A stretch of DNA of 27,078 bases from an uncultured archaeon. Its GTDB lineage: Archaea > Altiarchaeota > Altiarchaeia > JAFGQM01. A program made the position numbers and the translations under genes. This document shows positions 6,297 through 25,874 of the stretch, piece after piece. The DNA lies in contig CAZUDQ010000013.1 in assembly GCA_964619365.1 (NCBI GenBank), positions 1-27,078 of the forward strand. Reading direction: 5' to 3'. Each line of letters begins with the position of its first letter. Positions within the stretch are counted from its first letter, which is position 1. A model generated the notes under the pieces. The model was not told the DNA's origin. It saw nothing but the letters and a program-made list of their open reading frames with translations, and did not search any database.

Positions 6297-6524
6297 CAAG
6301 TCAAAAGTAAGATTTTCTTATTTTTTTTAAGTTGGATTACAACGTAACCCGACCATAATCCTTTCGGTATTTCGAAAGAAAGTAAGATTTTCTTACTTTT
6401 TATCTCACATGTATCAATATCTTCAAGTCAAAAGTAAGATTTTCTTATTTTTTAAGTTGGGTTACAACGTAACCCGACAATACTCCTCGGGTATTTCCGA
6501 GAAAGTAAGATTTTCTTACTTTTT
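6297..6524. repeat. Imperfect direct repeat, two ~100-105-bp copies (6297-6401 and 6424-6524, starts 127 bp apart), each built of four palindromes
   Basis: Both copies read CAAGTCAAAAGTAAGATTTTCTTATTTTT..AAGTTGG(A/G)TTACAACGTAACCCGAC..(stem)GTATTT(stem)AAAGTAAGATTTTCTTACTTTT. Confidence 0.95.
6303..6522. promoter_or_regulatory. Four palindromic operator-like sites AAAGTAAGA-TTT-TCTTA(C/T)TTT (6303-6324, 6379-6399, 6430-6451, 6502-6522), probably bound by the downstream AbrB/MazE protein
   Basis: Perfect 9-3-9 inverted repeat at 6379 and 6502, one-mismatch versions at 6303 and 6430. The sites lie between divergent hmgS and the AbrB gene. The binding protein is inferred. Confidence 0.65.
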
Positions 6525-8314: not shown

Positions 8315-8566
8315 TTAAAGGAGCGTAACGCCGGTTACCTCAACTGATTCTACACCCGGAATTGCTTTAATCGTGTTTTCAAGTTCGTCGGTTCCTCCAT
8401 CTTTATCCTCACGGATAAACTGGATTTCAAGACACTTGATGCCAAATGCAACAGGCTTTTCAGCTATTGCGTGAGGGGATAGTTTTTCAATCTCTTTTGC
8501 AACAAGAGAGAGATCAACATCAGTTCCTGTCGGCATAACCTTTATGTTTGATAATACTTCACCCAT
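8315..8566 (-). CDS. ef1b: Translation elongation factor 1-beta (archaeal)
   Basis: MGEV...IKVMP...DVDL, EKPVAFGIKCL, GGTDELE..I..IPGVESVEV. Confidence 0.93.
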   Translation of the reverse strand: MGEVLSNIKVMPTGTDVDLSLVAKEIEKLSPHAIAEKPVAFGIKCLEIQFIREDKDGGTDELENTIKAIPGVESVEVTGVTLL

Positions 8567-8849: not shown

Positions 8850-11800
8850 ATGAATAAAAAAGCTCTTCTCCTGACAATAGCAGTCCTTGCAGTATTTTTT
8901 GTTGCAGGAACATGTGCGCAGTATGTGAAAATCGACTCGGCGACAAACCCCACGATGGTATTTGATTCGGGGACATGTGTAGCATTTGTCGGTGACAATA
9001 TGCCTGTGGGAAAAGCTGCAAAGGAAATTTTTGAAAAGGAATTAAGTGACGAATCCTCAGTCGGAAGCACCGTTGCAGGCTGGTTCACAACGACAGTTGA
9101 TGATGTTAAGGGCGAAGCTAAAAATCCTATTTTAGGAAAGCAAGGCAGCGACGGATTCTTTTATTGCTACACGGCCGTAGCAGGAAGACAGATACCTTTA
9201 GAAAGTCACCCAAAGGTCATGGCAATCGAGTTTTGGACGCCCTCCATGGGAGATTCCCCAACATTGTCCGGTTGCGAAATCTATAAAGATAACTTTAAGA
9301 CTACAGCACCAAACTCCAATATATTAACAGACGGCAACGGAAAAATTTATTTTTCCGGCTCGGGATTCTATGCATCATGCGGAGTGGAAACAAAAACTTT
9401 TCCTGATTCTGGAAAAACAGCTCAAGTCCAAAAGATACTTGTAGCAGGTGCGAGCCAGGAGGCTCTTAAGGCCGCTGCAGAAGACTTGGCCGAAGCAATA
9501 GGCGACATGGATGCAAGCGATTATGAATCCAAGGTCAAATACTATGTTGATGAGCCTTGGGCAAAAAGCCTTTTAGTCTACACTAAAAACGGTGATAAGG
9601 GAGCTGCCTATGGCCTTGCTGAAACGGAGCTCGAATACAAAGACAGTATGTCAAAAACTCCTCTAGCATATATCAGCGATGATAGCAAAGAAACAAACAG
9701 CAATTATATCGCTCTTATCCTAAATCCTGGTGAGGATGGTCATGTCTATGTCTTTGCGTCCGCAGCAGATATCGTCAATAAACCCACGACAACCCCACAG
9801 GCTGTCGCCGCAACGCTAAACAAGCAAAATGCAGATAAAGAAAACGGCGGAGAGGGTTACTCGATAGTCAATGCGACAGCATACGGTTGCATAAATGCGG
9901 CAACAGCAAAACAGAAATCAAAGAATACTCAGTTATCTTCATCAGATTTTTCAACAGGCTCTGCTTATGCTTTAGACAACGACGGGATATATGCATTAAA
10001 TGTAACTGGTGAAGATTACGCTTATATAGGCCTTAACGGTTTTGTCTGCAATTTTGACGGCACTGAAGAAAAAGGTTCATGTACAGCGGCAATCTTAGGA
10101 ACAGACACTTATGTAAAAGATCCAAAAGAGGATCACGCATATTGCGCGCAGGCAAAGTCCGACGATGTGTCGGGGGCCTGGCAAAATCTTGGAGTCTACT
10201 GGGAAAAAGATACAGATGACGGTAAAATAACATTTATAGCGGGCTTTGCTCCCTGCTCAACAACAGGTATGGTTGCAATGGAGTCGGCATATCCTACAGG
10301 CAATTTGGGACGCCAGAAAGTCACTATTTGCGAAAAAGGGAAGTCGTATGAATGCCCCTACGATGAGAGCAAAGGAACTGAGGAAAACGGATATGGAACA
10401 TTCTCTTCTAATTGGTGTGGATGTCTTTCTCTGGAGGCGTTGCCGGAAATTGAAATAGGAACGGCTGAAACAGGTGGATCACCAAGCCTTAGCGTTGCTG
10501 ATAAAGGCAAAGTGGAAACTACTGCAGACCTTGGCACTGAGGTGACTAAGGATGATGCAAATAAAGCTAAAATTGAGCATGAAAAACAGCGTGCGACGCT
10601 TGCAAATCAAGCTTGGAGAGGCATAGTTTCTGTATCAGAAGATGCGTGGGATGGTGTCACAAGCGCAGGAGAAGTTGTGTGGGACGGAACAAAGTACGTA
10701 ACCGGTGCTACCTGGGACGGAACCAAGTATGTCGGCGGAGCCGCATGGGACGCGACTAAGTATGTAGGTCAATCTATAGGTGAAGGTGCACAAACCGTAT
10801 GGGATGGAACAAAGTACGTAACCGGTGCTACTTGGGACGGAACCAAGTATGTCGGCGGAGCCATATGGGACGCGACTAAATATGTGGGCAATACATTATA
10901 TACAACAAGCCCTGCTGATATCGTTAGTGGAATTGGAACTGGCGCACAAGCAGTATGGGACGGAACAAAGTACGTAACCGGTGCCACCTGGGACGGAACC
11001 AAGTATGTCGGCGGAGCCGCATGGGACGCGACTAAGTATGTAGGTCAATCTATAGGTGAAGGTGCACAAGCAGTATGGGACGGAACCAAGTATGTCGGTG
11101 GAGCCGTATGGAACGGAACCACATACGTTGGTGAACAAATAGGCGAAGGTGCACAAGCAGTATGGGACGGAACAAAGTACGTAACCGGTGCTACCTGGGA
11201 CGGAACCAAGTATGTCGGCGGAGCCGCATGGGACGCGACTAAGTATGTAGGTCAATCTATAGGTGAAGGTGCACAAGCAGTATGGGATGGAACAAAGTAC
11301 GTAACGGGTGCCACCTGGGACGGAACCAAGTATGTCGGCGGAGCCGCATGGGACGCAAGCATATATGTTGGCGAACAAATAGGCGAAGGTAGTGAATATG
11401 CAATATCAGCAATTGACTCTGGCGCAACCTCAACCTGGAATTATCTTGCAGAAGCCTCTGATGAAAACACAAAAGAACTTAACAATAAGATAGGCAATCC
11501 TAAAGACGGAACTATTCATGAATTGGAGGGGGTAGAATACCGATATACTGATGGCAAATGGGTAGTTGATGATGTCTGGGACGCAACAAAACTCGTAACG
11601 TTTAGTGCTGGTTCAGGTATTGCAGATGGCGCAGAGTATCTGTATACAAAGACAAACGAATATGTAGTCAATCCGGTATGGACATCCACAAAGGACGCGT
11701 CGTCTGCGACATGGGATGTAACAAAATCAATTGCAAATACATTATATACAACAAGTCCTGCTGATGTCGTTAGTGGAATTGGAACTGGCGCACAAACAGT

Positions 11801-12641
11801 ATGGGACGGAACAAAGTACGTAACCGGTGCTACCTGGGACGGAACCAAGTATGTAGGCGGAGCCACCTGGGACGGAACCACATACGTTGGTGAACAAATA
11901 GGCGAAGGCGCACAAACAGTATGGGACGGAACAAAGTACGTAACCGGAGCTACTTGGGACGGAACCAAGTATGTCGGCGGAGCCACCTGGGACGGAACCA
12001 CATACGTTGGTGAACAAATAGGCGAAGGCGCACAAACAGTATGGGACGGAACAAAGTACGTAACCGGAGCTACTTGGGACGGAACCAAGTATGTCGGCGG
12101 AGCCACCTGGGACGGAACAAAATATGTGGGCAATACATTATATACAACAAGCCCTGCCGATATCGTTAGTGGAATTGGAACTGGCGCACAAGCTACTGGC
12201 ACAGGTATTGCAAATGCTGCAGGGTACATCTGGGATGGTAACACAGAAAGTGGCAAAGATGCAACTCCATACAGCATCGTCGGGATGACAAGCACAACAG
12301 GCAATGCAATTTCAAATATGGCAAGCTGGACTTATGGGGCCACTAAAACAGGAGCAGTGGGTATCAAAGATGCAACGATTGCCACAACAAATGCTCTTTC
12401 AAATGCGGCAAGTAAAACAGGTACTGCAGTTAAAAGCGGTACTATAGCTGTTTATGATGGGACAGTTTATGTGTTCAAAGCCTCAGGAGACTGGGTAACC
12501 GGTACAGCATGGCCAAAAATAGGGGAATTTACAACAAGTACGGGAAAAACAATAGGAGCTACGGGCACATATATATATCAGGCCTCTCCGAAAAAGGTGG
12601 TCGATGATATTAAGTCGGTATTTGTTTCGACTACCCCATAA
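8850..12641 (+). CDS. Large secreted protein: signal peptide, acidic Cys-containing N-terminal half, C-terminal Trp-marked 11/18-aa repeat region
   Basis: Signal peptide MNKKALLLTIAVLAVFFVAGTCA and an uninterrupted 1263-aa ORF. Repeats read WDGTKYVTGAT/WDGTKYVGGAA/WDATKYVGQSIGEGAQAV. There is no C-terminal TM anchor. Function unknown. Confidence 0.85.
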   Translation: MNKKALLLTIAVLAVFFVAGTCAQYVKIDSATNPTMVFDSGTCVAFVGDNMPVGKAAKEIFEKELSDESSVGSTVAGWFTTTVDDVKGEAKNPILGKQGSDGFFYCYTAVAGRQIPLESHPKVMAIEFWTPSMGDSPTLSGCEIYKDNFKTTAPNSNILTDGNGKIYFSGSGFYASCGVETKTFPDSGKTAQVQKILVAGASQEALKAAAEDLAEAIGDMDASDYESKVKYYVDEPWAKSLLVYTKNGDKGAAYGLAETELEYKDSMSKTPLAYISDDSKETNSNYIALILNPGEDGHVYVFASAADIVNKPTTTPQAVAATLNKQNADKENGGEGYSIVNATAYGCINAATAKQKSKNTQLSSSDFSTGSAYALDNDGIYALNVTGEDYAYIGLNGFVCNFDGTEEKGSCTAAILGTDTYVKDPKEDHAYCAQAKSDDVSGAWQNLGVYWEKDTDDGKITFIAGFAPCSTTGMVAMESAYPTGNLGRQKVTICEKGKSYECPYDESKGTEENGYGTFSSNWCGCLSLEALPEIEIGTAETGGSPSLSVADKGKVETTADLGTEVTKDDANKAKIEHEKQRATLANQAWRGIVSVSEDAWDGVTSAGEVVWDGTKYVTGATWDGTKYVGGAAWDATKYVGQSIGEGAQTVWDGTKYVTGATWDGTKYVGGAIWDATKYVGNTLYTTSPADIVSGIGTGAQAVWDGTKYVTGATWDGTKYVGGAAWDATKYVGQSIGEGAQAVWDGTKYVGGAVWNGTTYVGEQIGEGAQAVWDGTKYVTGATWDGTKYVGGAAWDATKYVGQSIGEGAQAVWDGTKYVTGATWDGTKYVGGAAWDASIYVGEQIGEGSEYAISAIDSGATSTWNYLAEASDENTKELNNKIGNPKDGTIHELEGVEYRYTDGKWVVDDVWDATKLVTFSAGSGIADGAEYLYTKTNEYVVNPVWTSTKDASSATWDVTKSIANTLYTTSPADVVSGIGTGAQTVWDGTKYVTGATWDGTKYVGGATWDGTTYVGEQIGEGAQTVWDGTKYVTGATWDGTKYVGGATWDGTTYVGEQIGEGAQTVWDGTKYVTGATWDGTKYVGGATWDGTKYVGNTLYTTSPADIVSGIGTGAQATGTGIANAAGYIWDGNTESGKDATPYSIVGMTSTTGNAISNMASWTYGATKTGAVGIKDATIATTNALSNAASKTGTAVKSGTIAVYDGTVYVFKASGDWVTGTAWPKIGEFTTSTGKTIGATGTYIYQASPKKVVDDIKSVFVSTTP
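10678..11390 (+). repeat. Intragenic tandem repeat block 1 (33-bp and 54-bp subunits, 120-bp higher-order unit)
   Basis: Recurrent TGGGACGGAAC(A/C)AAGTA(C/T)GT. Sequence lines 10681 vs 10801 and 11161 vs 11281 are near-identical (120-bp offset). Confidence 0.95.
11709..12195 (+). repeat. Intragenic tandem repeat block 2 (120-bp unit, near-perfect copies)
   Basis: Lines 11881 and 12001 are identical, and 11941 and 12061 differ by one base. The block is flanked by the NTLYTTSPADxVSGIGTGAQ variant that also occurs near 10890. Confidence 0.95.
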
Positions 12642-12657
12642 AATAAAAAACAATAAA

Positions 12658-13545
12658 ATGAATTCAAGAAAACTGGGGGGAATTGCATTTTTTGCATTTT
12701 TTGCATTCGCATTTGTCGCATCAGGAGCAACGGATATCACAGTAGGCGAAAACGATTATTGCGAGCGTTATAATATCGAATTTTGGTGCGAGAAAGGTGC
12801 TACTGACTTTTTAGAAGGACTAGATCAAGAAACTCTTGAATGGTCTGGAGGATATCTAAACGATTTAGCTTTTACTGACTCCCAAAGATATACAGGTCTT
12901 TTAAAAGTCGATTCGGTCAAGGTAATCTCTGATGTAGGCAATGATGGCGCGAGGGTCAATGCCACATACATAATTAAAAACCCAGGTGACGAAGTTATCT
13001 CTGATTGGGGGGCAGCGTTTTATGCCCCAGGGGACACTAAGCTCTATCTTGATGGTGAAGAACTTGAAGGAATTGATGCGCAGCTTGACGGCTGGCCGAT
13101 TAATCTGGGGCCTGGTGAGACACAGGTTGTAAAGCTTGTCATGCAAGAACCCAATTATGGCGATATTTATGCTTATAATATAAACCTACTTTTTGATGGT
13201 AAGACAATAGACAATCACATAAGCCCAAAAGGCAGTTTTGAGTTCCTGCTTCCTGTGGGTGTAGACAACATCGAATGCGTACCTGGAGATTACACTAAGT
13301 CTGTATCAGACGGCCGTACAAAAGTCACTTGGGAAATGGAGAACTTTGTTCCTTGGACAAATCCTTTTAACGACCTTATCTGCAAGTGGGACGGTGCAGG
13401 GACAGAAACCAAAGAAGAGCCCACGACAACCCAAAGTCCCCAGAATACAACGGAAGGAAGTTTCCCATTATGGATAATAATCCTCGTAGTTGCTATAATA
13501 CTTGTAGCAGTCTTTTATTTCTATAAACGTGGGCAAGCGGAATAA
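12658..13545 (+). CDS. Secreted acidic protein with C-terminal transmembrane anchor
   Basis: Signal peptide MNSRKLGGIAFFAFFAFAFVASGA, Thr/Pro linker, TM FPLWIIILVVAIILVAVFYFY followed by KR. Starts 16 bp after the repeat-protein stop. Confidence 0.8.
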   Translation: MNSRKLGGIAFFAFFAFAFVASGATDITVGENDYCERYNIEFWCEKGATDFLEGLDQETLEWSGGYLNDLAFTDSQRYTGLLKVDSVKVISDVGNDGARVNATYIIKNPGDEVISDWGAAFYAPGDTKLYLDGEELEGIDAQLDGWPINLGPGETQVVKLVMQEPNYGDIYAYNINLLFDGKTIDNHISPKGSFEFLLPVGVDNIECVPGDYTKSVSDGRTKVTWEMENFVPWTNPFNDLICKWDGAGTETKEEPTTTQSPQNTTEGSFPLWIIILVVAIILVAVFYFYKRGQAE

Positions 13546-13604: not shown

Positions 13605-13678
13605 GCCCGGGTAGGGTAGCCAGGACATCCTTTCAGGTTGCGGACCTGACGACCGGGGTTCGAATCCCCGCTCGGGCG
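13605..13678 (+). tRNA. tRNA-Arg (anticodon GCG), intronless, no encoded CCA
   Basis: Acceptor GCCCGGG/CTCGGGC plus discriminator G, D arm GGGTAGCCAGGACATCC, anticodon arm TCAGG-TTGCGGA-CCTGA, T arm CGGGG-TTCGAAT-CCCCG. Confidence 0.96.
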
Positions 13679-13679
13679 C

Positions 13680-14123: not shown

Positions 14124-15191
14124 ATGAACCGCCCAGACGCCCATAAACTTTCAGATGAAGACTTTAAGCTTAGGCGAGGTACATTTGCTCATGACCATAG
14201 AGCCAATATACACGGCATTAACGGTTTGGCGGATTTGTATCAGAAGCATTTTGATCCAGATACACTCGAACTTTTTAAGTATCTGCATGGCACCCAGCCA
14301 AATTATTATATTGCAGAGCAAGCAAGCAAGCTAATTGCGGTGGAAGATAGGTTTAAAGATAAGTTTACTAATGTGTCTAATCGGGATGAGCGCAACCGGC
14401 TTCTTGAAGACTATAGGGAGGACTTGTCAATAGAACAAAAAGAACTGATTAAACGCAGTAAAAGGATACAAAAGTTTATTACGTTAAATAAAAGCCGGGC
14501 CTCTAAAGGGGATTTGAAGAAACAAGAACAAATGAATAAAATTTCAGATTTTTTTGATACATCAATAAAAACAGAAAAGACAACATTTTCAATGCAAAAT
14601 GCCCCAATGACGCTAAAACAGAAGATGCGGCGCATGAATATTAATCGCAGGCTTGAGAACTATGCAAAAAAGAACGGAATTGAGTATAAACCACTCAATG
14701 CAGGAAATGTAAGGCTTGTTAGCGTAAACCCAGAGATTTTTGACAGGGGGCTTGGCAACCTTGTCAATAATGCAAAACGACATATGGCACCTAATGATAA
14801 GATGACCCTTAAACTCGTAGGAAAACGGGGAGAATACCAAATAAAGCTTAGCAACACAGGGTCAGAACTCGGTCCTGAAGCCCAGGAAAAACTAGGACTT
14901 GAAGAGTTTACTACCAAAACCAAAAGTGGCGAGCATGGCAAGGGAACTCTTTCTGTAGCTCAAATGGCAAAGGAACATTGGGACATAGCAGGAAGAAAAG
15001 CACCCAAGCGTGTTCTTATCGCAAAGAACTGGGACAGTGGCGCAGGAAAGAAAGGTGTTGAAATGACAATACGACTTCCCGCACCCCACTTAAATGCTCC
15101 TGCCGCAAGAAAAACCCATAAAATAAAACCACAGAAGGGCGGGATTAAAAAAAGACCGTTGCGAAGTGCAAAGCCACGAAGAAGGAAATAA
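14124..15191 (+). CDS. Soluble histidine kinase-like protein (HisKA-like H box plus HATPase_c), no sensor domain
   Basis: H box FAHDHR, N box LGNLVNNAKRH, G1 LSNTG, F box EFTTK, G2 GEHGKG, terminal GVEMTIRLP, then a K/R/P-rich tail. Confidence 0.75.
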   Translation: MNRPDAHKLSDEDFKLRRGTFAHDHRANIHGINGLADLYQKHFDPDTLELFKYLHGTQPNYYIAEQASKLIAVEDRFKDKFTNVSNRDERNRLLEDYREDLSIEQKELIKRSKRIQKFITLNKSRASKGDLKKQEQMNKISDFFDTSIKTEKTTFSMQNAPMTLKQKMRRMNINRRLENYAKKNGIEYKPLNAGNVRLVSVNPEIFDRGLGNLVNNAKRHMAPNDKMTLKLVGKRGEYQIKLSNTGSELGPEAQEKLGLEEFTTKTKSGEHGKGTLSVAQMAKEHWDIAGRKAPKRVLIAKNWDSGAGKKGVEMTIRLPAPHLNAPAARKTHKIKPQKGGIKKRPLRSAKPRRRK

Positions 15192-15850: not shown

Positions 15851-16312
15851 TCAGTCCTTTGCTGGCTTCTTTTGTACTTTTTGACCAGTTGGCATCACAA
15901 TCCCCGAAGCCGGGTCATGATTATGATATGCATACAGCATACCTTTTTCATCAACAAAACCCGACTTAATACCACTACTTGCATCAGCGCCTTTGATGAG
16001 TTTGCCTTCCGGCGTTTTCATAGTTTTAAATACGCCAGTATTCTTTGCCTTTGTGAGTTTCCTTTCTGCAATGCCTTTCCCCCTCCCACAACGAAAGTTA
16101 GCACAATATGGCCAGTAAAAGTCTTCAATACCTTCAGTTAATACATAATGTCCGCTTCTATGAAGGTCGTCAACAACTAGTTCGGGTTTGCCCTCCCTTA
16201 GACATTTGTTATTTATCCATTCAGAAGACACCCTAACCTTTTTACATTGCCTACAAATGCTAGAAGGTTTTTTTGGAGAGTATAGTGGAGATTTTTTCTT
16301 TCGACTTATCAT
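15851..16312 (-). CDS. Hypothetical basic Cys-motif protein, paralog 1 of 5
   Basis: CRQC..C..YCANFRC..IKGADAS..GFVDEKGMLYAY..HD..S..V..TGQ, shared with its neighbours. The start overlaps the upstream stop (ATGA). Confidence 0.85.
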   Translation of the reverse strand: MISRKKKSPLYSPKKPSSICRQCKKVRVSSEWINNKCLREGKPELVVDDLHRSGHYVLTEGIEDFYWPYCANFRCGRGKGIAERKLTKAKNTGVFKTMKTPEGKLIKGADASSGIKSGFVDEKGMLYAYHNHDPASGIVMPTGQKVQKKPAKD

Positions 16313-16722
16313 TTTCCCTCCAATTCCTTTTCACTTAGTTTTTGACCGGTGGGCATTACTTGCAGGCTTTTGGGGTCAAGATTTTTATATGCATAAAGCT
16401 TGCCCGCCTTATCCACAAAACCAGTTTTAATTATGCTTGCATCAACGCCTTTTATAGGTTTTATGTCATGAAATTTTATTTGATGATTACCACCTTTAGC
16501 GGTTGCATTCAATTGTTTTACTGCGTGCGCTCTCCCCCGCTCGCAACGATAATATGCACAGAACGCAGGATTGTCCGTAAGGGGCAAATTTTGTTCCTTA
16601 GCGTCTAGAACCACAAGCTTTGGATCTTTTATCCTGCAGTTCTTATTAAGCTTAAAGGTTACGCATTTTTGACAGACGGCTCGTTTGTCTCTAGGAGCTT
16701 TTAGGGCAGGTCTTGGCTTCAT
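16309..16722 (-). CDS. Hypothetical basic Cys-motif protein, paralog 2 of 5
   Basis: CQKC..C..FCAYYRC..IKGVDAS..GFVDKAGKLYAY..LD..S..V..TGQ. Confidence 0.85.
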   Translation of the reverse strand: MKPRPALKAPRDKRAVCQKCVTFKLNKNCRIKDPKLVVLDAKEQNLPLTDNPAFCAYYRCERGRAHAVKQLNATAKGGNHQIKFHDIKPIKGVDASIIKTGFVDKAGKLYAYKNLDPKSLQVMPTGQKLSEKELEGK

Positions 16723-16736
16723 ATTCTAAGGGGTTA

Positions 16737-17198
16737 TTACTTGTTTGCTTTAGCCATTTTTCGCCTTTCAATTAGCGCCAAAGTCTCTTTATCCAGGTTC
16801 GCATACTGTCCAGTGCTGTGAACTACGTGGGAATCCTTATCATGCCCATCATAGACGTACAGCCTTCCGTCCAAATCCACAAAGCCTCTTTTGTTAAGGC
16901 TGGCATCGACCCCTTCGATTTCTAACCTGCCTTCCTTTTTGACGATAAGCTTTCCTTTTTCCACCGCGCGTTTAAGTCTATTCCCTGCAACTCGGGTCCC
17001 CCTTGGACATCTCCGATTAGCACAATAAGCAACCATAACATCAGGGTTCTCCTGGTATTTGTCCCAAGTGGCCTTTGCTATATCATCAAGCACAAGCTCC
17101 GCTTTGCCTTTCATCCGGCAGCTACTCGCAAAACCGCATTTTTCACATACGGCCTTAGGGTTCTTGGGCTTATGGATATGGTGACTTGCTTTTCTCAT
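16737..17198 (-). CDS. Hypothetical basic Cys-motif protein, paralog 3 of 5
   Basis: CEKC..C..YCANRRC..IEGVDAS..GFVDLDGRLYVY..HD..S..V..TGQ. The start overlaps the upstream stop (ATGA). Confidence 0.87.
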   Translation of the reverse strand: MRKASHHIHKPKNPKAVCEKCGFASSCRMKGKAELVLDDIAKATWDKYQENPDVMVAYCANRRCPRGTRVAGNRLKRAVEKGKLIVKKEGRLEIEGVDASLNKRGFVDLDGRLYVYDGHDKDSHVVHSTGQYANLDKETLALIERRKMAKANK

Positions 17199-17662
17199 TT
17201 TTTCTTTGACTCCTTAAGCAATGCTTTAACGTCTTTGCTAAGTTTTATACTCTGTCCTGTAGCAATCACTTCAGGGGACTTTTTGTCATGCCCCTTATAA
17301 ACATATAATTTTCCTTTTGTGTCAACAAAACCTCTTTTTATCAGGCTTGCATCAGCCCCCATGATTTCTAGATTGCCTTCTTTTTTGACGACAAGCTTTT
17401 CCTTTTCCAGTGCGCGCTTAAGTCTATCCCCTGCGATGCGAACGCCTTCCAGACATCTTCGGTTAACACAATAAGCGTTCATATCAGAATAAGCAATCAT
17501 ATTAGATGGGTTTTCCAGATACCCGTTCCAAGTAGCTTGTGTCATATCATCACGCACAAGTTCTGCCTTATCCTTCATCCGGCAGCTACTCGCAAAACCG
17601 CATTTTTCACATACGGCCTTAGGGTTCTTGGGCTTATGGATATGGTGACTTGCTTTTCTCAT
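17110..17662. repeat. 89-bp exact direct repeat (17110-17198 and 17574-17662) covering the 5' ends of paralogs 3 and 4
   Basis: Both read ttcatccggcagctactcgcaaaaccgcatttttcacatacggccttagggttcttgggcttatggatatggtgacttgcttttctcat. Confidence 0.93.
17195..17662 (-). CDS. Hypothetical basic Cys-motif protein, paralog 4 of 5
   Basis: CEKC..C..YCVNRRC..IMGADAS..GFVDTKGKLYVY..HD..S..V..TGQ. The first 30 aa are identical to paralog 3. Confidence 0.87.
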   Translation of the reverse strand: MRKASHHIHKPKNPKAVCEKCGFASSCRMKDKAELVRDDMTQATWNGYLENPSNMIAYSDMNAYCVNRRCLEGVRIAGDRLKRALEKEKLVVKKEGNLEIMGADASLIKRGFVDTKGKLYVYKGHDKKSPEVIATGQSIKLSKDVKALLKESKKK

Positions 17663-17697
17663 CGTGAGGATTGTTACTAAAATAACATCATTTAAAG

Positions 17698-18147
17698 CTA
17701 TCTAACTCGATACCTTAAAACATTGAACGGAAATTTTTTAATAGCACATTGTCCTGTTGCAATTACCTCATCATTTAGCCTGGGATTGTCAGGATATGTG
17801 AATACACTGTAGTCAGTTGCCATAAAAAAACTTCCTCGCGGGCTTTTGATATGTACCCCCTCAACTATATCTCCCCCAGATTCCCGCCTCTTGACACTAG
17901 GAACATCAGGCGAATGTAAATTTTGTCTTGCCAGTTTAAGCTCCTCTGGACTTCTAAGATTTGCGCAGTGTTTAGGGAGAGCTTCTCCACCATTACGGGA
18001 AACTTGTTTTACTATAGGGGCGCCAAGTCTCATTTTACAAGTTTTCGACGCACCACAACTTTTACAAAGGGCCTTATCATTAAAAATCCTGGGTTTTCTG
18101 ACAGGTCTACCAAGTTCAGGATGGGGATTACGTGAACCTTTTGGCAT
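17698..18147 (-). CDS. Hypothetical basic Cys-motif protein, paralog 5 of 5 (most divergent)
   Basis: KALCKSC..C..HCANLR..VEGVH..VFTY..EVIATGQ aligns with the other four. It lacks the fifth Cys and the GFVD motif is degenerate. Confidence 0.78.
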   Translation of the reverse strand: MPKGSRNPHPELGRPVRKPRIFNDKALCKSCGASKTCKMRLGAPIVKQVSRNGGEALPKHCANLRSPEELKLARQNLHSPDVPSVKRRESGGDIVEGVHIKSPRGSFFMATDYSVFTYPDNPRLNDEVIATGQCAIKKFPFNVLRYRVR

Positions 18148-19110: not shown

Positions 19111-19449
19111 ATGAAGCGCATAAGTTTATTTGTCCTAGCAGCAATTTTCGCATTTGTTCTGATTGCAAGCGCGCAGGCTACAATATCTTATTACGGAACA
19201 GGCGGCACTAAATATTATTCTAATTATAACACGGTTTACGCTCCAAATTATCAGACATACTACGCCCCGACAAATATCCCAACGTATTATGGGGGGTACG
19301 GCGGCTATTATTACCCATCAAATTATTACAACTACGGTTATGGGTATGACTATGGTTATAATTACGGCTACTATGGTGGAGGCTATGGTGGCTACTACGG
19401 CGGATATTATCCATACTCCTCCGGGATTTATGCGAGCGTTTATTGGTAA
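19111..19449 (+). CDS. Small secreted Tyr/Gly-rich low-complexity protein
   Basis: Signal peptide MKRISLFVLAAIFAFVLIASAQA, then a mature region dominated by Y, G and N. Confidence 0.82.
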   Translation: MKRISLFVLAAIFAFVLIASAQATISYYGTGGTKYYSNYNTVYAPNYQTYYAPTNIPTYYGGYGGYYYPSNYYNYGYGYDYGYNYGYYGGGYGGYYGGYYPYSSGIYASVYW

Positions 19450-19513
19450 GTTCCCAGGATTTCTTCTAAGGACAAAGATTTTTATTTACTGAGTGACTAG
19501 TTTCAACGTTAAA

Positions 19514-20275
19514 ATGAACTATTCTTTTGCCGTTTTCTCATTACTTGCAGTCGTGCTTTTCTCTTTTAGCGCAGTTGCAGATGTTCCTTTCTACCAGCCC
19601 CACAGTATTTTAGGGCAGGTATTTTATTCAAACGGCAGTGCCGCTCCGGCAGGGACGCCCATCACAATAAAGCTTATCCGCTCGGACGGGACGGTGGATG
19701 AAATCTCAAAAGTAACTCCGACAAATCCGAGCGTGCCGGATAATGTTTTCTTTAGTGCCCTTACAGTTTCAGAATTTGGAGTCGATGTTCTTGAAATAAC
19801 TGTCGGAAAAGACTCCGAAGCCGTCACCAACACATTTGTTTTGACTCAAGACCTCACAGAACTTAATATAACTATAGATAATGAGCTAACTCTCCTTGAG
19901 GAAGAGCCCGACTGGGTAGGCTTACAAGAAAATGCAAAGGATGCTCCCGAAAAAACAGATGCGAAAACGTCTGAAAACCCTCCAAAAGACAAGCAAGAAG
20001 AGAATATACCTAGAGAGTCCCCCAAAGAAGAAACTAATGATGAAGTTCTAACAGGGGAACAAGACTCAAACTCAAGTAAAACAGAAGCCATTAACAATGA
20101 ATCATTGCAAATTGATACTGCTACAAAAGAACAGCCAGAGATTCAAAGAAACGATGAAGAAAATGACAGCTTAAACCTTATCTATATAATTATACCTGCG
20201 CTTGTAGTTCTTTTAATATTATATTTCTATTTACCTAAAAAGAAGACGAAGAAAAAGTATGCTCTTTCTGGGTGA
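19514..20275 (+). CDS. Secreted protein with N-terminal beta-sandwich-like module, acidic disordered stalk and C-terminal TM anchor
   Basis: Signal peptide MNYSFAVFSLLAVVLFSFSAVA, PHSILGQVFYSNGSAAPAGTPI module, E/D/K/S/T-rich linker, TM LIYIIIPALVVLLILYFYL plus poly-Lys. Confidence 0.8.
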   Translation: MNYSFAVFSLLAVVLFSFSAVADVPFYQPHSILGQVFYSNGSAAPAGTPITIKLIRSDGTVDEISKVTPTNPSVPDNVFFSALTVSEFGVDVLEITVGKDSEAVTNTFVLTQDLTELNITIDNELTLLEEEPDWVGLQENAKDAPEKTDAKTSENPPKDKQEENIPRESPKEETNDEVLTGEQDSNSSKTEAINNESLQIDTATKEQPEIQRNDEENDSLNLIYIIIPALVVLLILYFYLPKKKTKKKYALSG

Positions 20276-20318
20276 TTTATATGTGAACTTCCATTTAATA
20301 TAAGAATTGCAATCCAAC

Positions 20319-20963
20319 ATGAAACGAGCCATAATACCAACAGTCTTTATGCTGGCATTTTTATTGATGTTAACTCTAGGTCTTTCAACCTCTATAATCT
20401 CCTTACCAATAACACCAACTAACTCCAGTATTGAAGCTATTTTTTCAAATGCGTCCCTAGGGGATACAATATATAGGTTCGACACTAATACAAACCGTTA
20501 TAATTCGGCAACTTACATGAATTTTCCGGAAGTGGGCGATATCTGGGTTGCCGATCCCGCAAGCTTTACTACCATTGACGCAAGCTTAGGATATTTTTAC
20601 ATTCCAGCTTCTGGTACTTCATACAATGTAAATATTCTTGGAGAAGTCAATACAAGCAATGCATCAATTGAGATATTAACTGCAGGGCAAGGTGAATCTG
20701 TTGGAATGAACCTTGTTGCATGGAATAGTCCAATAAGACAATGCAATTTTAGTGAACTTGTTCCTAATGCCTCAGTAGGAGATACAATATATAGATTCAA
20801 TACAGGTACAAACCGTTATAACTCAGTCACTTACACCCATTTTACAGGTATAGGAAATATTTGGGTTGCTGACCCAGCAAATTTTGAATGTTTTGATCCT
20901 GGTGTGGGGTATATATTTACTCCTGTGGCCGCGGGTTACGTCTGGGAATATGAGCGTATTTAA
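20319..20963 (+). CDS. Secreted protein made of two ~106-aa internal repeats
   Basis: Signal peptide, then NAS(L/V)GDTIYRFxTxTNRYNSxTY...G.IWVADPA.F...D...GY at 20448 and 20766 (318-bp offset). Confidence 0.82.
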   Translation: MKRAIIPTVFMLAFLLMLTLGLSTSIISLPITPTNSSIEAIFSNASLGDTIYRFDTNTNRYNSATYMNFPEVGDIWVADPASFTTIDASLGYFYIPASGTSYNVNILGEVNTSNASIEILTAGQGESVGMNLVAWNSPIRQCNFSELVPNASVGDTIYRFNTGTNRYNSVTYTHFTGIGNIWVADPANFECFDPGVGYIFTPVAAGYVWEYERI

Positions 20964-20993
20964 ATAAGACTAATCTTAAATAATTAAACTAAA

Positions 20994-23900
20994 ATGATTC
21001 AAAGAAACTATATTTTATCTAGTTTAGTACTTTTAACTCTTTTAATGTTGACTTCCAGTATATTAGCTGATGATCCTCCTTGCTCATCTCCTTGGACACC
21101 AGGATATGTTGATGGCTTTATAACACTACCTGATGGAAGTCCCGTCCCTATGGGAACGCCCCTTAATGTCACAACAATATTTGCAGGCGGTGGAAGTTAT
21201 GTTAATAATTCACAGACACGAATTGTAGATAATTATTATAAAGTTACTCTTAGTTATTGTGGGTCATCTGATAATGTAAGCGTTACTTGTTCTTATGCTG
21301 ATGGATTTGGCTCAAATTGGACTCTTCTAACAAGTAGTACACCCAGATTAAATCTCACGATAACGGGTGTTCCCCCACTCGTAATAACCTGGGCGACAAA
21401 TAATGTCAACGTCACAACCAACGAGACGCCTTACACATTCTCTCTTACCACATCAAAGACGACAAGCAATTGTACTCTTTACCTTAACGGCACGATTCAG
21501 CCAGTAAATGACACAGAAGGCACAGAATTCAACTGGTCTGTTGCCGTCATTCATCGGAATTACACAAACTTTGACGTCCTTTGTATAGACACTTACGGCT
21601 TTATGAACTGGAGCAACAATTCTTGGCTTAATGTCGATCTTGTCGCACCAACAGTGTCATGGTCAAGTGGTAATCTGAATGCAGTCACAAACGACTCAAC
21701 GCCGACACTAAATGTAACTACAAGCGAGACTGTTTCACTTTGTAGGATAACGCTTAATGGGACGAACCGCACTATGACAGGCTCAGGCACTGCTTGGACT
21801 TATACTCCAACAAGTAACCTTAGTGACGGCAATTACACAGGCATTAAAGCTTACTGTTGGGACCTTGCAGGCAACAGAGGAAACTCAACCCCTGGCTGGA
21901 TTTATGTGGATACGCATCCGCTTTCAGTAAATTGGTCATTCCCCGAAGTAAACAGCATAATCACGACAAGCGAGGTAAACATAACTGTAAATGTAAGTGA
22001 GGATGTGGACTGGTGCAAATTAGGTGTAACCAACGCCACAGGTTGGTATATCTCATATGATATGTTGAATGCTAGCCCTACATGGTACACTAATTTCTCT
22101 AATCTTGATGAAGGCAATCACACGCTTAATGTGACCTGCAATGATGGCATCCAATCCTACCGATTAGGTCCTGCTTGGCTTGATGTCGACACAATAATCC
22201 CGCTTGTAACATGGGACACACAAACAAATGCGACCCTTATGACAGATACTTACACAGCTCAGGTGAACACACACCTTGACGTACTCTCTTGTACACTTGA
22301 TGTCAATGGAACAAGTTACAACATGACAAACACTTCAACAACGGAGTGGAGCTATGAGCTTGCGAGTGTTGCTTATAACAATTATACCTTAAGCGTATCT
22401 TGTGTTGATGACGCGGGGCATGTCGGCAATTCATCTTCCATGTGGGTGAATCTTGTACAGTGTTACTACCCATCAGGAACTGGGACAGCTGGGGATCCAT
22501 GGATTGTCAGCTGTTGTGGCGGAGAAGCCGGTGCTTCAGGTTACTACGAAGTAAATTCAAGTGCGACTCTTGAAGTGACCGACACATATTCATGTGTATA
22601 TGTCACGGCAGATGATGTGACAATCGACGGAAATGGTTCTACCATAACTGGAAACCTCTCAGATGATGTAGCTGGAGTGGTAATCTCAGGTAGGGATAAT
22701 GTAACTGTTAAGAATCTTATAGCGGTGACTCTTGAATGGGGCATCGTCGTAGAAAACGATACCAATGTCGATATTTTGAATAATTCCATAAGCAATTGTA
22801 CTTATGCACTCGGAATTGAGGACGAATCATTCATTACATACGCAGGAGCCAATAACTTCAGTAACAACTCAGTAGGGGTATATATCGAAGATTCTGACAA
22901 TAGCACGATTTTCAACAATACACTTAACAATAATTCGTATAGCCTTATTGTTTTAATGCTTACAGAAAACACAACTATTGACTCAAACCAGATAAATGGA
23001 AATGGTGTGGGGATTCTCACGATATTTGCCGCATTTAACAACATTACAAACAATACAATATGCAACAATACGGCTGGAATTTATTTAGACACATGGTCAA
23101 TGGTTTCAAACCTGAGTTATAATGTTATTGAAAACAATAGCGAAACAGGAATCTATATGTACCAAGGTGTTTCAAATTCAATATTTGAAAACAACTTTTC
23201 GGGCAACAGTCAATATGCAATAGTTCTTGAAAATGCCTCACTAAATACAATACGAGGCAATAATTTTTCAGATGAGAATGTATCTATCCTTATAAATGGT
23301 AGTTCACAGGTAAACAATATTTCAGAGAACAACATAAATGTGAGCATAACAGGGATTTTAATAAACGCATCTAACAACACAATACTCACCAATGTAATAA
23401 ACTCAAGTGATTGGGGCATTTGGATTGAAGGCAATAATAATACAGTTCTTGGCAATACCGTTACTAATTCAGATGAGGTAGGACTTTATCTAGCAGACGG
23501 TGCTGAAAACAATTCAATTGATGCAAATATATTATGTTCAAACGATGTTGACATAATGGCAGAAGTGACTGGTGAGAACTCAGGAGACAACAACACCTGT
23601 ACAGTGTATACAAACTGGGCTGATGATTCAGTGGCTTCTGGCTGCAGGTACATATGCGGCGCGACTACAGTTTCAGCCTGCCGCATACTAAACAACTCAA
23701 ATACGGTATACCAGCTAACAGCAGACATACCAAATGACGATGGCGACTGTTTCATAATAAACGAGTCAAACATCACCCTTAATTTGGCCGGGTTTACTGT
23801 TGATGGTGACAACGACACAGACGGCGCGGCAGTAAAGATAAACGCAACTGCGCCATATGCGACAGTATTTAGCGGAGTTTTGACACAGTTTAAAATTGGT

Positions 23901-25874
23901 GTTAACATAAGTGCAGCCAATGCAACAGTCTATGACCTTATAATAAATGATACTAGGGGTACTGGAATCTGGGTCCTTGCAAATAATGCTAACATCTCAA
24001 ATTCTATGATATATGATTTAGATAGGCCAGGAGTGGCGTTGAATAACACTAACTCCACAACACTTAGCGACCTCACGATATATTTATCCTCTCTTAGTGG
24101 AATTGATGCAAATATTGTAGGCGGACTTACAATAGAAGATTTGACAGTGTATAATTGTAGTGGAAACGGAATAGAAATTTCAAACGGAAACGATACGACA
24201 ATAACAAATATCTTATCAACAAACAACAGCGCTTCAGGTGTTTATATAACTGCATCGAATATCACAGCAATAAGTAACTTGATTTCAGTTGATAACTCAG
24301 AAAACGGTGTATATGTCATAAATGCTTCTGGAACGCCAAATGACACCACAATAACAGACGCTACAATAAGCAGTAACGACGACATGGGTATTAGGGTACT
24401 TGGAGCAAGTTCGACAACAATTTCAAATGTTATTGCTAACCAGAACGCGGCTGATGGTCTTTTGGTAACTTTCTCAAATACGACTACAGTTAATAACTTA
24501 ACTGCAAATTCAAACTACAGGCGTGGAATTACTGGTGGACTTGTCGTGGGTCTTAATATCAATGATTCTACATGTAATTACAACAATGGGACTGGAATGT
24601 ATTTCCAGTACATCAACTATTCAACTATTGCAAATTCGACAGCGTCATATAACAATGGGAGTGGCCTTATGATATGGACTAACGACTCTACTGTAAACAA
24701 CACGAATATAACAGTGACGGCAGTTACACTAGAATTCAATCAAGAAGACGGTGTCGGTGGCTTTGATGTGGTAAACAGCACAATGACTGATTCAGTGATG
24801 TGCTTTAACGACCAAAGTGCTGGAGCTTATTACGATGCAGCACATGACATGACTACCAGAAACCTCAATGCGACAAATAACACCTGTGATACAAGTGTCA
24901 ACTGGACTGAGGATATGCAGACATTAGGTTGCACCAATAGATGTGTTGCAGTAAACATCACAAAGACATCTACTGTGAGTAGCGTCTGCAGAGGCAGCAC
25001 TATTAACTGGAGAGTAGCCGTCTGCAACAACGGTCTTTACACAGTCAATGTAAGTTTAAATGATACGGAGCTTTCAAAAACGCATACTCTATCAAACTTA
25101 GCCGCAGATGCGTGTTCCACTTGGAGTTACACAAGTACAATGGGCTCCTCAGCTGTAATAAACAATGTGACGGCAAACGCGACAAATAATAACTCGTATT
25201 ATAACGTATTAGGCTCGGCTACAGTAAGCAGAAGAACATATAATTGCGGTGGCGGTAGTTCAGGCAGTGGTGGAAGCGGCAGTGGCAGTATGGTAATCTA
25301 CAGTCCAACTCTACCTACTGAGACATGTGGTAACGGTAACTGCGCAGGCAACGAGACTTGCCTTACTTGTCCCGAAGACTGTGGAAAGTGCGTCGCAAAG
25401 GTTATAATTGAGAATATTCCTGGCGTCGGTGAAGAGCTTGTCATGCTAATCATGGACGCAGACGGCAAGTTTGCTGAAGGTGTTGTAATACTAAACACTC
25501 CACAGGGCGAAGCAATCGAAGTCGTTCTTGTTGGAGGCAAAGCAAAGTTCACAGTGCCTGAAGCTGGTGTCTGGGAAGTGCAGTTTACAGACGAAGATGG
25601 CAATCTTATAACCGAGAAATTCTCAGTCGCACGGCAAACAGAACCTGTCGTAAAGCCTGATGAGAAGACAACGGTTGAAGACGACATAAAAAAGATTGAA
25701 GACGACATAAAAGAAATCGAAAAAGAAGCATCCGGAGATGTACTTCCGATTATCATAGTCTTAGTGGTAATTGCAGTGATTGTCGCCCTGTTCTTCCTGA
25801 TGAAATCAAAGAAGGGCGAACTTGGATCTTTTTTACCTACAAAAGCTAAGAAAAAAGGTCTAAGGGGACTTTAA
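20994..25874 (+). CDS. Large membrane-anchored cell-surface glycoprotein with Ig-like repeats and NosD/CASH-type parallel beta-helix regions
   Basis: Signal peptide, about four ~90-aa units with disulfide-like Cys pairs (e.g. CWDLAGN, CVDDAGH), two long GI.I..S.NNTI beta-helix tracts, G/S linker, CGNGNC..NETCLTCPEDCGKC motif, TM VLPIIIVLVVIAVIVALFFLM plus Lys tail, and very dense NxS/T sequons. Confidence 0.88.
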   Translation: MIQRNYILSSLVLLTLLMLTSSILADDPPCSSPWTPGYVDGFITLPDGSPVPMGTPLNVTTIFAGGGSYVNNSQTRIVDNYYKVTLSYCGSSDNVSVTCSYADGFGSNWTLLTSSTPRLNLTITGVPPLVITWATNNVNVTTNETPYTFSLTTSKTTSNCTLYLNGTIQPVNDTEGTEFNWSVAVIHRNYTNFDVLCIDTYGFMNWSNNSWLNVDLVAPTVSWSSGNLNAVTNDSTPTLNVTTSETVSLCRITLNGTNRTMTGSGTAWTYTPTSNLSDGNYTGIKAYCWDLAGNRGNSTPGWIYVDTHPLSVNWSFPEVNSIITTSEVNITVNVSEDVDWCKLGVTNATGWYISYDMLNASPTWYTNFSNLDEGNHTLNVTCNDGIQSYRLGPAWLDVDTIIPLVTWDTQTNATLMTDTYTAQVNTHLDVLSCTLDVNGTSYNMTNTSTTEWSYELASVAYNNYTLSVSCVDDAGHVGNSSSMWVNLVQCYYPSGTGTAGDPWIVSCCGGEAGASGYYEVNSSATLEVTDTYSCVYVTADDVTIDGNGSTITGNLSDDVAGVVISGRDNVTVKNLIAVTLEWGIVVENDTNVDILNNSISNCTYALGIEDESFITYAGANNFSNNSVGVYIEDSDNSTIFNNTLNNNSYSLIVLMLTENTTIDSNQINGNGVGILTIFAAFNNITNNTICNNTAGIYLDTWSMVSNLSYNVIENNSETGIYMYQGVSNSIFENNFSGNSQYAIVLENASLNTIRGNNFSDENVSILINGSSQVNNISENNINVSITGILINASNNTILTNVINSSDWGIWIEGNNNTVLGNTVTNSDEVGLYLADGAENNSIDANILCSNDVDIMAEVTGENSGDNNTCTVYTNWADDSVASGCRYICGATTVSACRILNNSNTVYQLTADIPNDDGDCFIINESNITLNLAGFTVDGDNDTDGAAVKINATAPYATVFSGVLTQFKIGVNISAANATVYDLIINDTRGTGIWVLANNANISNSMIYDLDRPGVALNNTNSTTLSDLTIYLSSLSGIDANIVGGLTIEDLTVYNCSGNGIEISNGNDTTITNILSTNNSASGVYITASNITAISNLISVDNSENGVYVINASGTPNDTTITDATISSNDDMGIRVLGASSTTISNVIANQNAADGLLVTFSNTTTVNNLTANSNYRRGITGGLVVGLNINDSTCNYNNGTGMYFQYINYSTIANSTASYNNGSGLMIWTNDSTVNNTNITVTAVTLEFNQEDGVGGFDVVNSTMTDSVMCFNDQSAGAYYDAAHDMTTRNLNATNNTCDTSVNWTEDMQTLGCTNRCVAVNITKTSTVSSVCRGSTINWRVAVCNNGLYTVNVSLNDTELSKTHTLSNLAADACSTWSYTSTMGSSAVINNVTANATNNNSYYNVLGSATVSRRTYNCGGGSSGSGGSGSGSMVIYSPTLPTETCGNGNCAGNETCLTCPEDCGKCVAKVIIENIPGVGEELVMLIMDADGKFAEGVVILNTPQGEAIEVVLVGGKAKFTVPEAGVWEVQFTDEDGNLITEKFSVARQTEPVVKPDEKTTVEDDIKKIEDDIKEIEKEASGDVLPIIIVLVVIAVIVALFFLMKSKKGELGSFLPTKAKKKGLRGL

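Follow-up and report, generated by a model that had tools for sequence, protein, structure and literature searches.

The DNA analysed here is a stretch of 27,078 nucleotides (the window) from an uncultured archaeon of the Altiarchaeota, and positions 8850 to 12641 encode a putatively exported protein of 1263 amino acids (aa) that carries a long, tryptophan-marked repeat. With a little more confidence than doubt, we propose that this protein belongs to a two-gene surface-display module in which a constant carrier presents an exchangeable passenger, the passenger in this genome being a conditional helix that would act as a spacer or adhesive. Orthologous carriers bear unrelated C-terminal tails, and a conserved partner gene recurs beside the carrier gene. 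This defines, in a poorly known archaeal lineage, a carrier/anchor pair of genes that has no name yet and whose surface cargo is swapped fast, albeit over a narrow range of lineages, and a Trp periodicity of the tape-measure type is, by itself, no marker of phage.

According to the mechanism that we propose, a protein probably exported via Sec joins a constant carrier, about 520 aa long, to a C-terminal passenger that can be exchanged, and the neighboring gene's product, a single-pass membrane protein, probably keeps the carrier at the cell surface. The passenger in this genome (G000) is a repeat of the heptad-plus-tetrad type, marked by Trp and enlarged by recent 120-bp duplications, and its unit lengths would keep the same face of a straight alpha-helix in register. 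With glycine at 20%, the repeat is probably unfolded in solution; contact with a membrane, a hydrophobic surface, or its own copies would lead to long, weakly amphipathic helices, kinked at the proline units. Once folded, it may serve as a length-variable spacer and a multivalent adhesive of low affinity, and it would be one of a large set of surface decorations that can replace one another. In a bolder version, to which we give only a small chance, this would be an undescribed, cassette-style form of display whose passengers are swapped by recombination, and the giant tape-measure-type helix would be an exported, perilipin-like Velcro that grips the membranes of other cells or hydrophobic droplets. 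The features of the module are as follows.

8850 to 12641, plus strand: putatively exported protein of 1263 aa (signal peptide, carrier domain, and repeat passenger), from translation of the open reading frame (ORF)
8850 to 8918, plus strand: Sec-type signal peptide (residues 1-23), recognized by eye; the starts of relatives are alike
8919 to 10469, plus strand: conserved, Cys-rich carrier domain, residues 24-540 (about 520 aa)
10614 to 11435, plus strand: Trp repeat block 1, residues 589-862, in 11/11/18 units with one Pro 30-mer
10866 to 10955, plus strand: the Pro-containing 30-mer (11+12+7), with a T-S-P-A-D motif
11436 to 11576, plus strand: nonrepeat spacer, residues 863-909, modeled as a helix and a three-strand meander; the best-predicted part of the passenger, with a predicted local distance difference test score (pLDDT) of 63-76
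11577 to 11801, plus strand: degenerate Trp units, residues 910-984
11802 to 12230, plus strand: Trp repeat block 2, residues 985-1127
12231 to 12638, plus strand: Thr/Gly/Ala-rich C-terminal tail, without a transmembrane (TM) anchor and without a Pfam family
12658 to 13545, plus strand: conserved partner gene, 295 aa, with a signal peptide, an ectodomain in which a PWTNP motif is invariant, and a TM helix at the C terminus; a candidate anchor

A constant carrier with exchangeable passengers

Carrier residues 24-540 match no Pfam, NCBIfam, or PDB sequence family, and a literature search, with most subscription papers and supplements outside its coverage, found no description of the carrier family. 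A profile search with the carrier recovered 16 cluster representatives among 1.84 billion, counting this protein, and a word-indexed search returned only the protein itself among 7999 candidates. The ESM Atlas gave no usable match for either repeat or carrier, solved structures, queried by sequence and by profile, offered no usable hit, and a Foldseek comparison of the two low-confidence models had no match at an E value of ≤0.001. Carrier relatives occur in 5 of 61 Altiarchaeota genomes, all from family f1 (four of the seven other f1 genomes, and none of the 53 outside f1).

The first 200 or so residues of the carrier were modeled as an alpha/beta domain (mean pLDDT, 38). Its split alpha/beta arrangement resembles those of the Methanococcus S-layer anchor (PDB 9FSA), BcsB, and the N-terminal domains of GH67 and GH20 proteins, with Z scores of 6.0 to 6.8, root mean square deviations (rmsd) of 3.3 to 4.1, and 107 to 132 aligned residues, values that are not decisive at a Z score under 8. 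For the S-layer anchor, which the accessible portion of PMC11410804 describes as dimeric, the comparison gave a Z score of 6.0, an rmsd of 3.5, and 110 aligned residues on the same model. Homology of the carrier to S-layer anchors was considered and is not supported by profile comparison: hhalign against Altiarchaeota S-layer anchors gave a probability of at most 2.3%, and the protein has no PF05124 match. G000 has a separate S-layer gene, at G000:C4:59666-62554, whose product is of the Methanococcus type (PF05124, with its N- and C-terminal halves split) and is found in 53 of the 61 Altiarchaeota genomes.

The passengers were compared across 16 relatives, leaving out the fragments P0026, P0027, and P0029 and the duplicate loci L041 and L042; the proteins from G007, L043, and L044 and P0028 are possibly incomplete. 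Trp pairs at a spacing of 11 or 18 number 26 in this protein versus 0 or 1 in the relatives' passengers, which instead contain LRR, FN3, TSP3, Ig-like, or carboxypeptidase-regulatory domains, or nothing recognizable. These unrelated tails on orthologous carriers span 252 to 1110 aa, and one of the carriers is encoded at this very locus in a genome of the same genus. For instance, P0021 and the L040 protein share 92.7% identity across 573 columns and beyond these are unrelated, the best match there having an E value of 0.41. In a tree of 16 carriers, which omits P0024 as well (its first half is missing), the present carrier groups on a long branch with P0020, L040, and P0021 (support, 100/97), none of which has the Trp repeat. 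The contig of the same-genus genome G001 stops 24 codons into a gene at the same site, and those residues are the start of P0020, whose passenger differs from the Trp repeat. The repeat has no relative in the seven other f1 genomes, nor any in viral contigs, where the carrier alignment was not searched. The unrelated passengers on grouped carriers therefore indicate that the Trp repeat is lineage-specific cargo and not the conserved function of the locus; it is one exchangeable passenger among others, a modularity that the original prediction, partly supported overall, had missed.

The passengers of P0025 and P0028 have a common segment of 131 residues (E = 3e-18), and the end of P0025 looks kinase-like by eye. 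The segment is presumably pre-toxin-TG-like; Pfam confirms neither assignment.

The gene at 12658 to 13545 had been counted among the housekeeping flanks of the protein. The flanks do consist of cellular genes and a tRNA, with no phage genes, and this member of them is not a housekeeping gene but the conserved partner. Eight loci are informative, G001 and L042 being cut off too soon to be included, and at seven of them the partner is no more than about 750 bp from the carrier. It immediately follows the carrier in G000, G006, G007, and L040/L041, and in G004 it follows on the far side of a contig break; in L043 (two copies) and L044 (745 bp off) it is found upstream. The sole exception is G002 (81% complete), where the carrier has a C-terminal TM helix of its own; the pattern as a whole suggests that the partner is the anchor. 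A Kyte-Doolittle mean above 2.4 over 19 residues occurs in only 2 of 17 carriers, those of G002 and P0019. From this arrangement we infer that carrier and partner bind each other. Several points tell against the assignment of the partner as anchor: the pairing in G004 is read across a contig break; the TM-bearing carriers (G002, at 81% completeness, and P0019, for which compare P0018 without a TM helix) may be paralogs rather than replacements; and the organisms that contribute the loci are related, so that the loci do not count as independent observations.

The tryptophan repeat and its fold

Trp-initiated units of 11 and 18 residues, their 29- and 40-residue groupings, and Pro-containing 30-mers had been described from the sequence, and all are borne out by cutting the protein at Trp, by Tandem Repeats Finder (periods of 33, 87, 120, and 207 bp), and by comparison of ORFs. 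Cutting at Trp yields units of 11, 11, and 18 residues. Each 11-mer is a heptad, WDGTKYV, followed by a tetrad; in the 18-mer these are joined by a degenerate heptad, and what sets the 30-mer apart is a 12-residue unit bearing the T-S-P-A-D motif, which we take to be helix-cap-like. The array forms two blocks rather than one (589-862 and 985-1127), parted by the spacer and the degenerate units; Pro variants of 30 residues stand at residues 673 and 955, with a related unit at 1087. Trp-Trp intervals of 7, 11, 18, 22, or 29 occur 28 times here, and no other ORF of the 3285 read in six frames from G000 has more than 5.

Twenty-six heptad cores match W[DN].[TS].YV and differ mostly at silent sites. 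Their ratio of nonsynonymous to synonymous differences (pN/pS) is 0.075, or 0.118 over 10 distinct cores, the copies not being independent. The 40-mers share 117 to 119 of 120 nucleotides inside a block and 101 to 103 of 120 between blocks. Because the 40-mers are nearly identical and the differences between heptad cores are mostly silent, we conclude that the array has expanded recently and that the protein sequence it encodes is under constraint. The unique flanks and the spacer are joined to the repeats by contigs of runs X1, X2, and X3, none of which crosses the whole array; the copy number is thus as assembled, without a spanning piece. Read depth in X1, which may be the source sample, is raised over the repeats and is no measure of copy number.

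The Sec-type signal peptide and the lack of a TM anchor, both previously noted, hold up: the former is recognizable by eye, and no TM segment is found, the best 19-residue Kyte-Doolittle mean past residue 40 being 1.14. The repeat blocks contain 20 to 21% Gly, and Gly, Thr, Val, Tyr, Trp, and Ile together account for about 60% of them. The computed net charges are -10 and -7.

With a rotation of 99.3 degrees per residue, the pitch of a nearly straight alpha-helix, units of 11 and of 18 residues both stay in register to within 12.6 degrees; the next best angle, 161.4 degrees, achieves 25. Every block tested has a hydrophobicity peak at 99 degrees, which none of 500 shuffles reaches, and there is no excess at 160 to 180 degrees. 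On a helical wheel, a narrow Lys/Asp strip has Trp and Tyr on both sides. The amphipathic 11-mer helix of the original prediction thus retains its geometry, though it is weak, with a mean 18-residue hydrophobic moment of 0.25 to 0.26 versus 0.44 to 0.52 in two tape-measure repeats; no significant homology to the lipid binders named alongside it was found. A precedent is Plin4, a Thr/Gly/Val-rich helix with a moment of 0.257 that, in the part of PMC5889406 available, is reported as unfolded in solution and helical on lipid.

Other observations count against a helical repeat. Fourier peaks at 63 and 134 degrees equal the one at 99 degrees, which in tape-measure controls is dominant (0.43 to 0.49), and the shuffle test demonstrates periodicity of sequence and nothing further. 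The repeat is also less prone to form a helix than tape-measure repeats are (0.57 to 0.62 versus 0.48 to 0.52 kcal/mol). Moreover, single-sequence AlphaFold2 produces recurring beta-hairpins, with a mean pLDDT of 37 and values of about 50 to 60 in the hairpin stretches. Of the outcomes named at the outset as refuting the original prediction, a beta-solenoid or disorder without amphipathicity, the first is partly borne out by the hairpins, at low confidence, and weak amphipathicity is still seen at 99 degrees. We consider a helix distinctly, albeit not overwhelmingly, likelier than a hairpin as the fold of the repeat. If fully helical, the repeat would form lengths of about 41 and 33 nm.

Known systems and rival explanations

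The tape-measure likeness on which the original prediction drew is real. The repeat matches PHROG family phrog_58 (E = 1.3e-9) and 174 phage records at an E value of ≤1e-3, of which the 15 listed are all tape-measure genes. An 11-11-18 pattern is described for the p2 and TP901-1 tape measures, with repeats predicted to be largely helical, in the accessible sections of PMC5099701. The repeat shares with these siphophage proteins the Trp-marked 11/18 units, the 40-mer grouping, and a W-D-G-x-K-x-V register, at about 29 to 33% identity across the repeat. This likeness exceeds Trp spacing: 0 and 1 of 150 column-permuted controls match the scores against two tape-measure repeats, which were themselves chosen by similarity. 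Unlike tape measures, the protein has a signal peptide, no hydrophobic TM regions, Thr for Ile at position 4, and about half the hydrophobic moment. The tape-measure N-terminal domain PF10145 has no match in the protein or in G000, which at about 85% completeness bounds every genome-wide negative given here for it (a control search was positive in 8 of 14). The proposed search for tube and sheath genes turned up no sheath, terminase, or PF06199 match in G000. Among nine other Altiarchaeota genomes with phrog_58 matches, seven loci were read, and none has a comparable exported Trp array. Virus-like proteins matching phrog_58 occur at L106 (G037:C52) and L109 (G046:C49), and L106 looks like a true tape-measure gene.

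The same WD(G/A)TK motif is also found outside phage tails, in the core protein of an extracellular contractile injection system (P0004), in P0012 and the Chloroflexota protein P0013 (large and nonphage), in the helicase-like P0014, and in P0030. These nontail proteins have the repeat consensus closest to the present one, 18-mer included, and likewise have Thr at position 4; their arrays are shorter (70 to 185 aa) and sit on unrelated, uncharacterized proteins. Perilipin-4, alpha-synuclein, and apolipoproteins form 11/3 helices that resemble the repeat in their 11-mer period, weak moment, Thr/Gly/Val-rich composition, and great length; unlike them, the repeat is aromatic-rich, net acidic, and exported and mixes units of 11 and 18. 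No Pfam match to perilipin, synuclein, or apolipoprotein was obtained. The weak matches to alpha-synuclein (E = 0.21) and to the synuclein-like WalE1 family (35 bits, against a cutoff of 90; PMC4958246, as far as its available text goes) appear to reflect only a common 11-mer class. Constant-carrier, variable-passenger surface proteins are familiar from autotransporters, two-partner adhesins, and polymorphic toxins. The module resembles these in its conserved export or anchoring portion, swapped C-terminal cargo, and dedicated partner gene; it differs in being archaeal, in its unrelated sequences, in its single-pass membrane partner, and in that no toxin or immunity gene was found.

Within the same carrier/passenger design, the repeat might instead be a string of beta-hairpins, with W-D-G-T-K-Y as strand-turn-strand, giving a meander, a stalk, or an amyloid-like adhesive. 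We consider this unlikely, even though AlphaFold2 repeats one hairpin pattern in each 11-11 block, the six residues that make up about 60% of the blocks favor it, hairpins commonly have Asp-Gly turns and Trp/Tyr pairs across their strands, and other passengers in the carrier family are beta-rich. The model is a single-sequence one of low confidence, and its fold search was empty at the threshold given above; a hairpin string also leaves unexplained why the long unit is exactly 11+7, a helix-preserving length that recurs in tape measures and in P0004, P0012, and P0013. More improbable still is a dedicated lipid-binding helix of the perilipin, apolipoprotein, or synuclein kind, bridging to another cell's membrane or taking up lipid. 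Here the Plin4-like moment, the Thr/Gly/Val bias, the Trp and Tyr beside the narrow Lys/Asp strip, and the weak synuclein and WalE1 matches are favorable, as is the proline punctuation, which we take to be reminiscent of ApoA-I. However, none of the 16 relatives needs such a helix, and lipid uptake, which the original prediction had offered, is weakened by the archaeal-lipid enzymes encoded in G000, GGGP synthase and a UbiA-family prenyltransferase, and by a thiolase/HMG-CoA-synthase cluster seen in translations of the window. Charge also speaks against it: Plin4 has a net positive polar face, a property absent here (-10 and -7), and, within the available part of PMC5889406, making Plin4 net negative abolished its targeting to droplets.

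A constant N terminus with variable C termini, the presence of the same repeat in P0004, and the segment common to P0025 and P0028 would also suit export of the polymorphic-toxin type, with the Gly-rich helical repeat as a membrane-crossing linker. This is very improbable: neither P0025 nor P0028 nor the tail of this protein has a Pfam toxin or pre-toxin family, adhesin-type domains occur in most passengers, and the neighboring gene is constant and the passengers variable, the opposite of what is expected of an immunity gene. Least probable of all, and largely refuted, is a domesticated phage tape-measure protein serving as the molecular ruler of a cellular appendage. Its attraction lies in the 11-11-18 Trp pattern and the significant similarity to tape-measure repeats. 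The ruler that had been predicted is nevertheless not supported, because orthologous carriers bear unrelated tails and no tail-module family was found in G000, where phrog_58 matches this repeat and nothing else. The repeat is absent from orthologs, a signal peptide is present (by eye), and position 4 is Thr, as in the nontail proteins, and not the Ile of tape measures. Moreover, per-residue scores against P0012, P0013, P0030, and P0004 exceed those against either tape measure. A ruler role is thus unlikely, and the repeat DNA may have come from phage capture or from convergence. We therefore retain two-gene surface display with an exchangeable passenger as the preferred explanation.

The locus and its surroundings

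The genes neighboring 8850 to 12641 are cellular and syntenic. The conserved features outside the gene pair are as follows.

8315 to 8566, minus strand: divergent EF-1beta gene that marks synteny upstream, immediately preceded by a small Zn-ribbon gene
13605 to 13679, plus strand: tRNA-Arg(GCG), part of the conserved locus; in L040/L041 also after the partner

The order in G000 is KH-ATPase, EF-1beta with the Zn-ribbon gene, carrier, partner, tRNA-Arg, and TrmB. It recurs in L040/L041, where the synteny rests on KH-ATPase, Zn-ribbon, partner, tRNA, and TrmB, and its start is also present in G001. An element integrated at tRNA-Arg was considered as the source of the gene and rejected, the order of EF-1beta, carrier, partner, and tRNA-Arg being conserved. 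Promoter and terminator scans, with models bacterial in type, gave results near chance, and CdhC has no match in G000. Three runs contain fractions of 0.41 to 0.92 of the sequence words; these runs are salt-lake metagenomes from one year, possibly from one campaign, and one of them is possibly the source. No RNA run is among the listed datasets that contain the words.

Between tRNA-Arg and TrmB lies a variable stretch that includes, at 15851-18147 on the minus strand, five tandem paralogs of 137 to 155 aa, basic, with four invariant Cys residues and a TGQ motif and without a Pfam family. At 14124-15191, the window encodes an orphan HATPase_c histidine-kinase-like protein, rich in Lys and Arg, with no obvious TM segment and no adjoining response regulator. 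Upstream of the carrier, a 125-bp near-duplicate at 6297-6524 lies ahead of and extends into an AbrB/MazE-type gene and possibly represents operator repeats.

Other exported proteins are encoded in the window and the genome. A cluster at 19111-25874 comprises a Tyr/Gly-rich peptide of 112 aa, two further exported proteins, both small, and a NosD/beta-helix protein of 1626 aa that has a TM helix at its C terminus. Contigs C1, C2, C5, C6, C9, C12, and C15 of G000 encode at least eight giant exported proteins of up to 4275 codons, several of them end-truncated, with a common N-terminal ..GLAIGDD.. YEYF motif. Finally, a 45-bp tandem repeat at the contig end (26886-27078) encodes an Asp/Gly-rich unit, presumably an EF-hand or dockerin-type loop.

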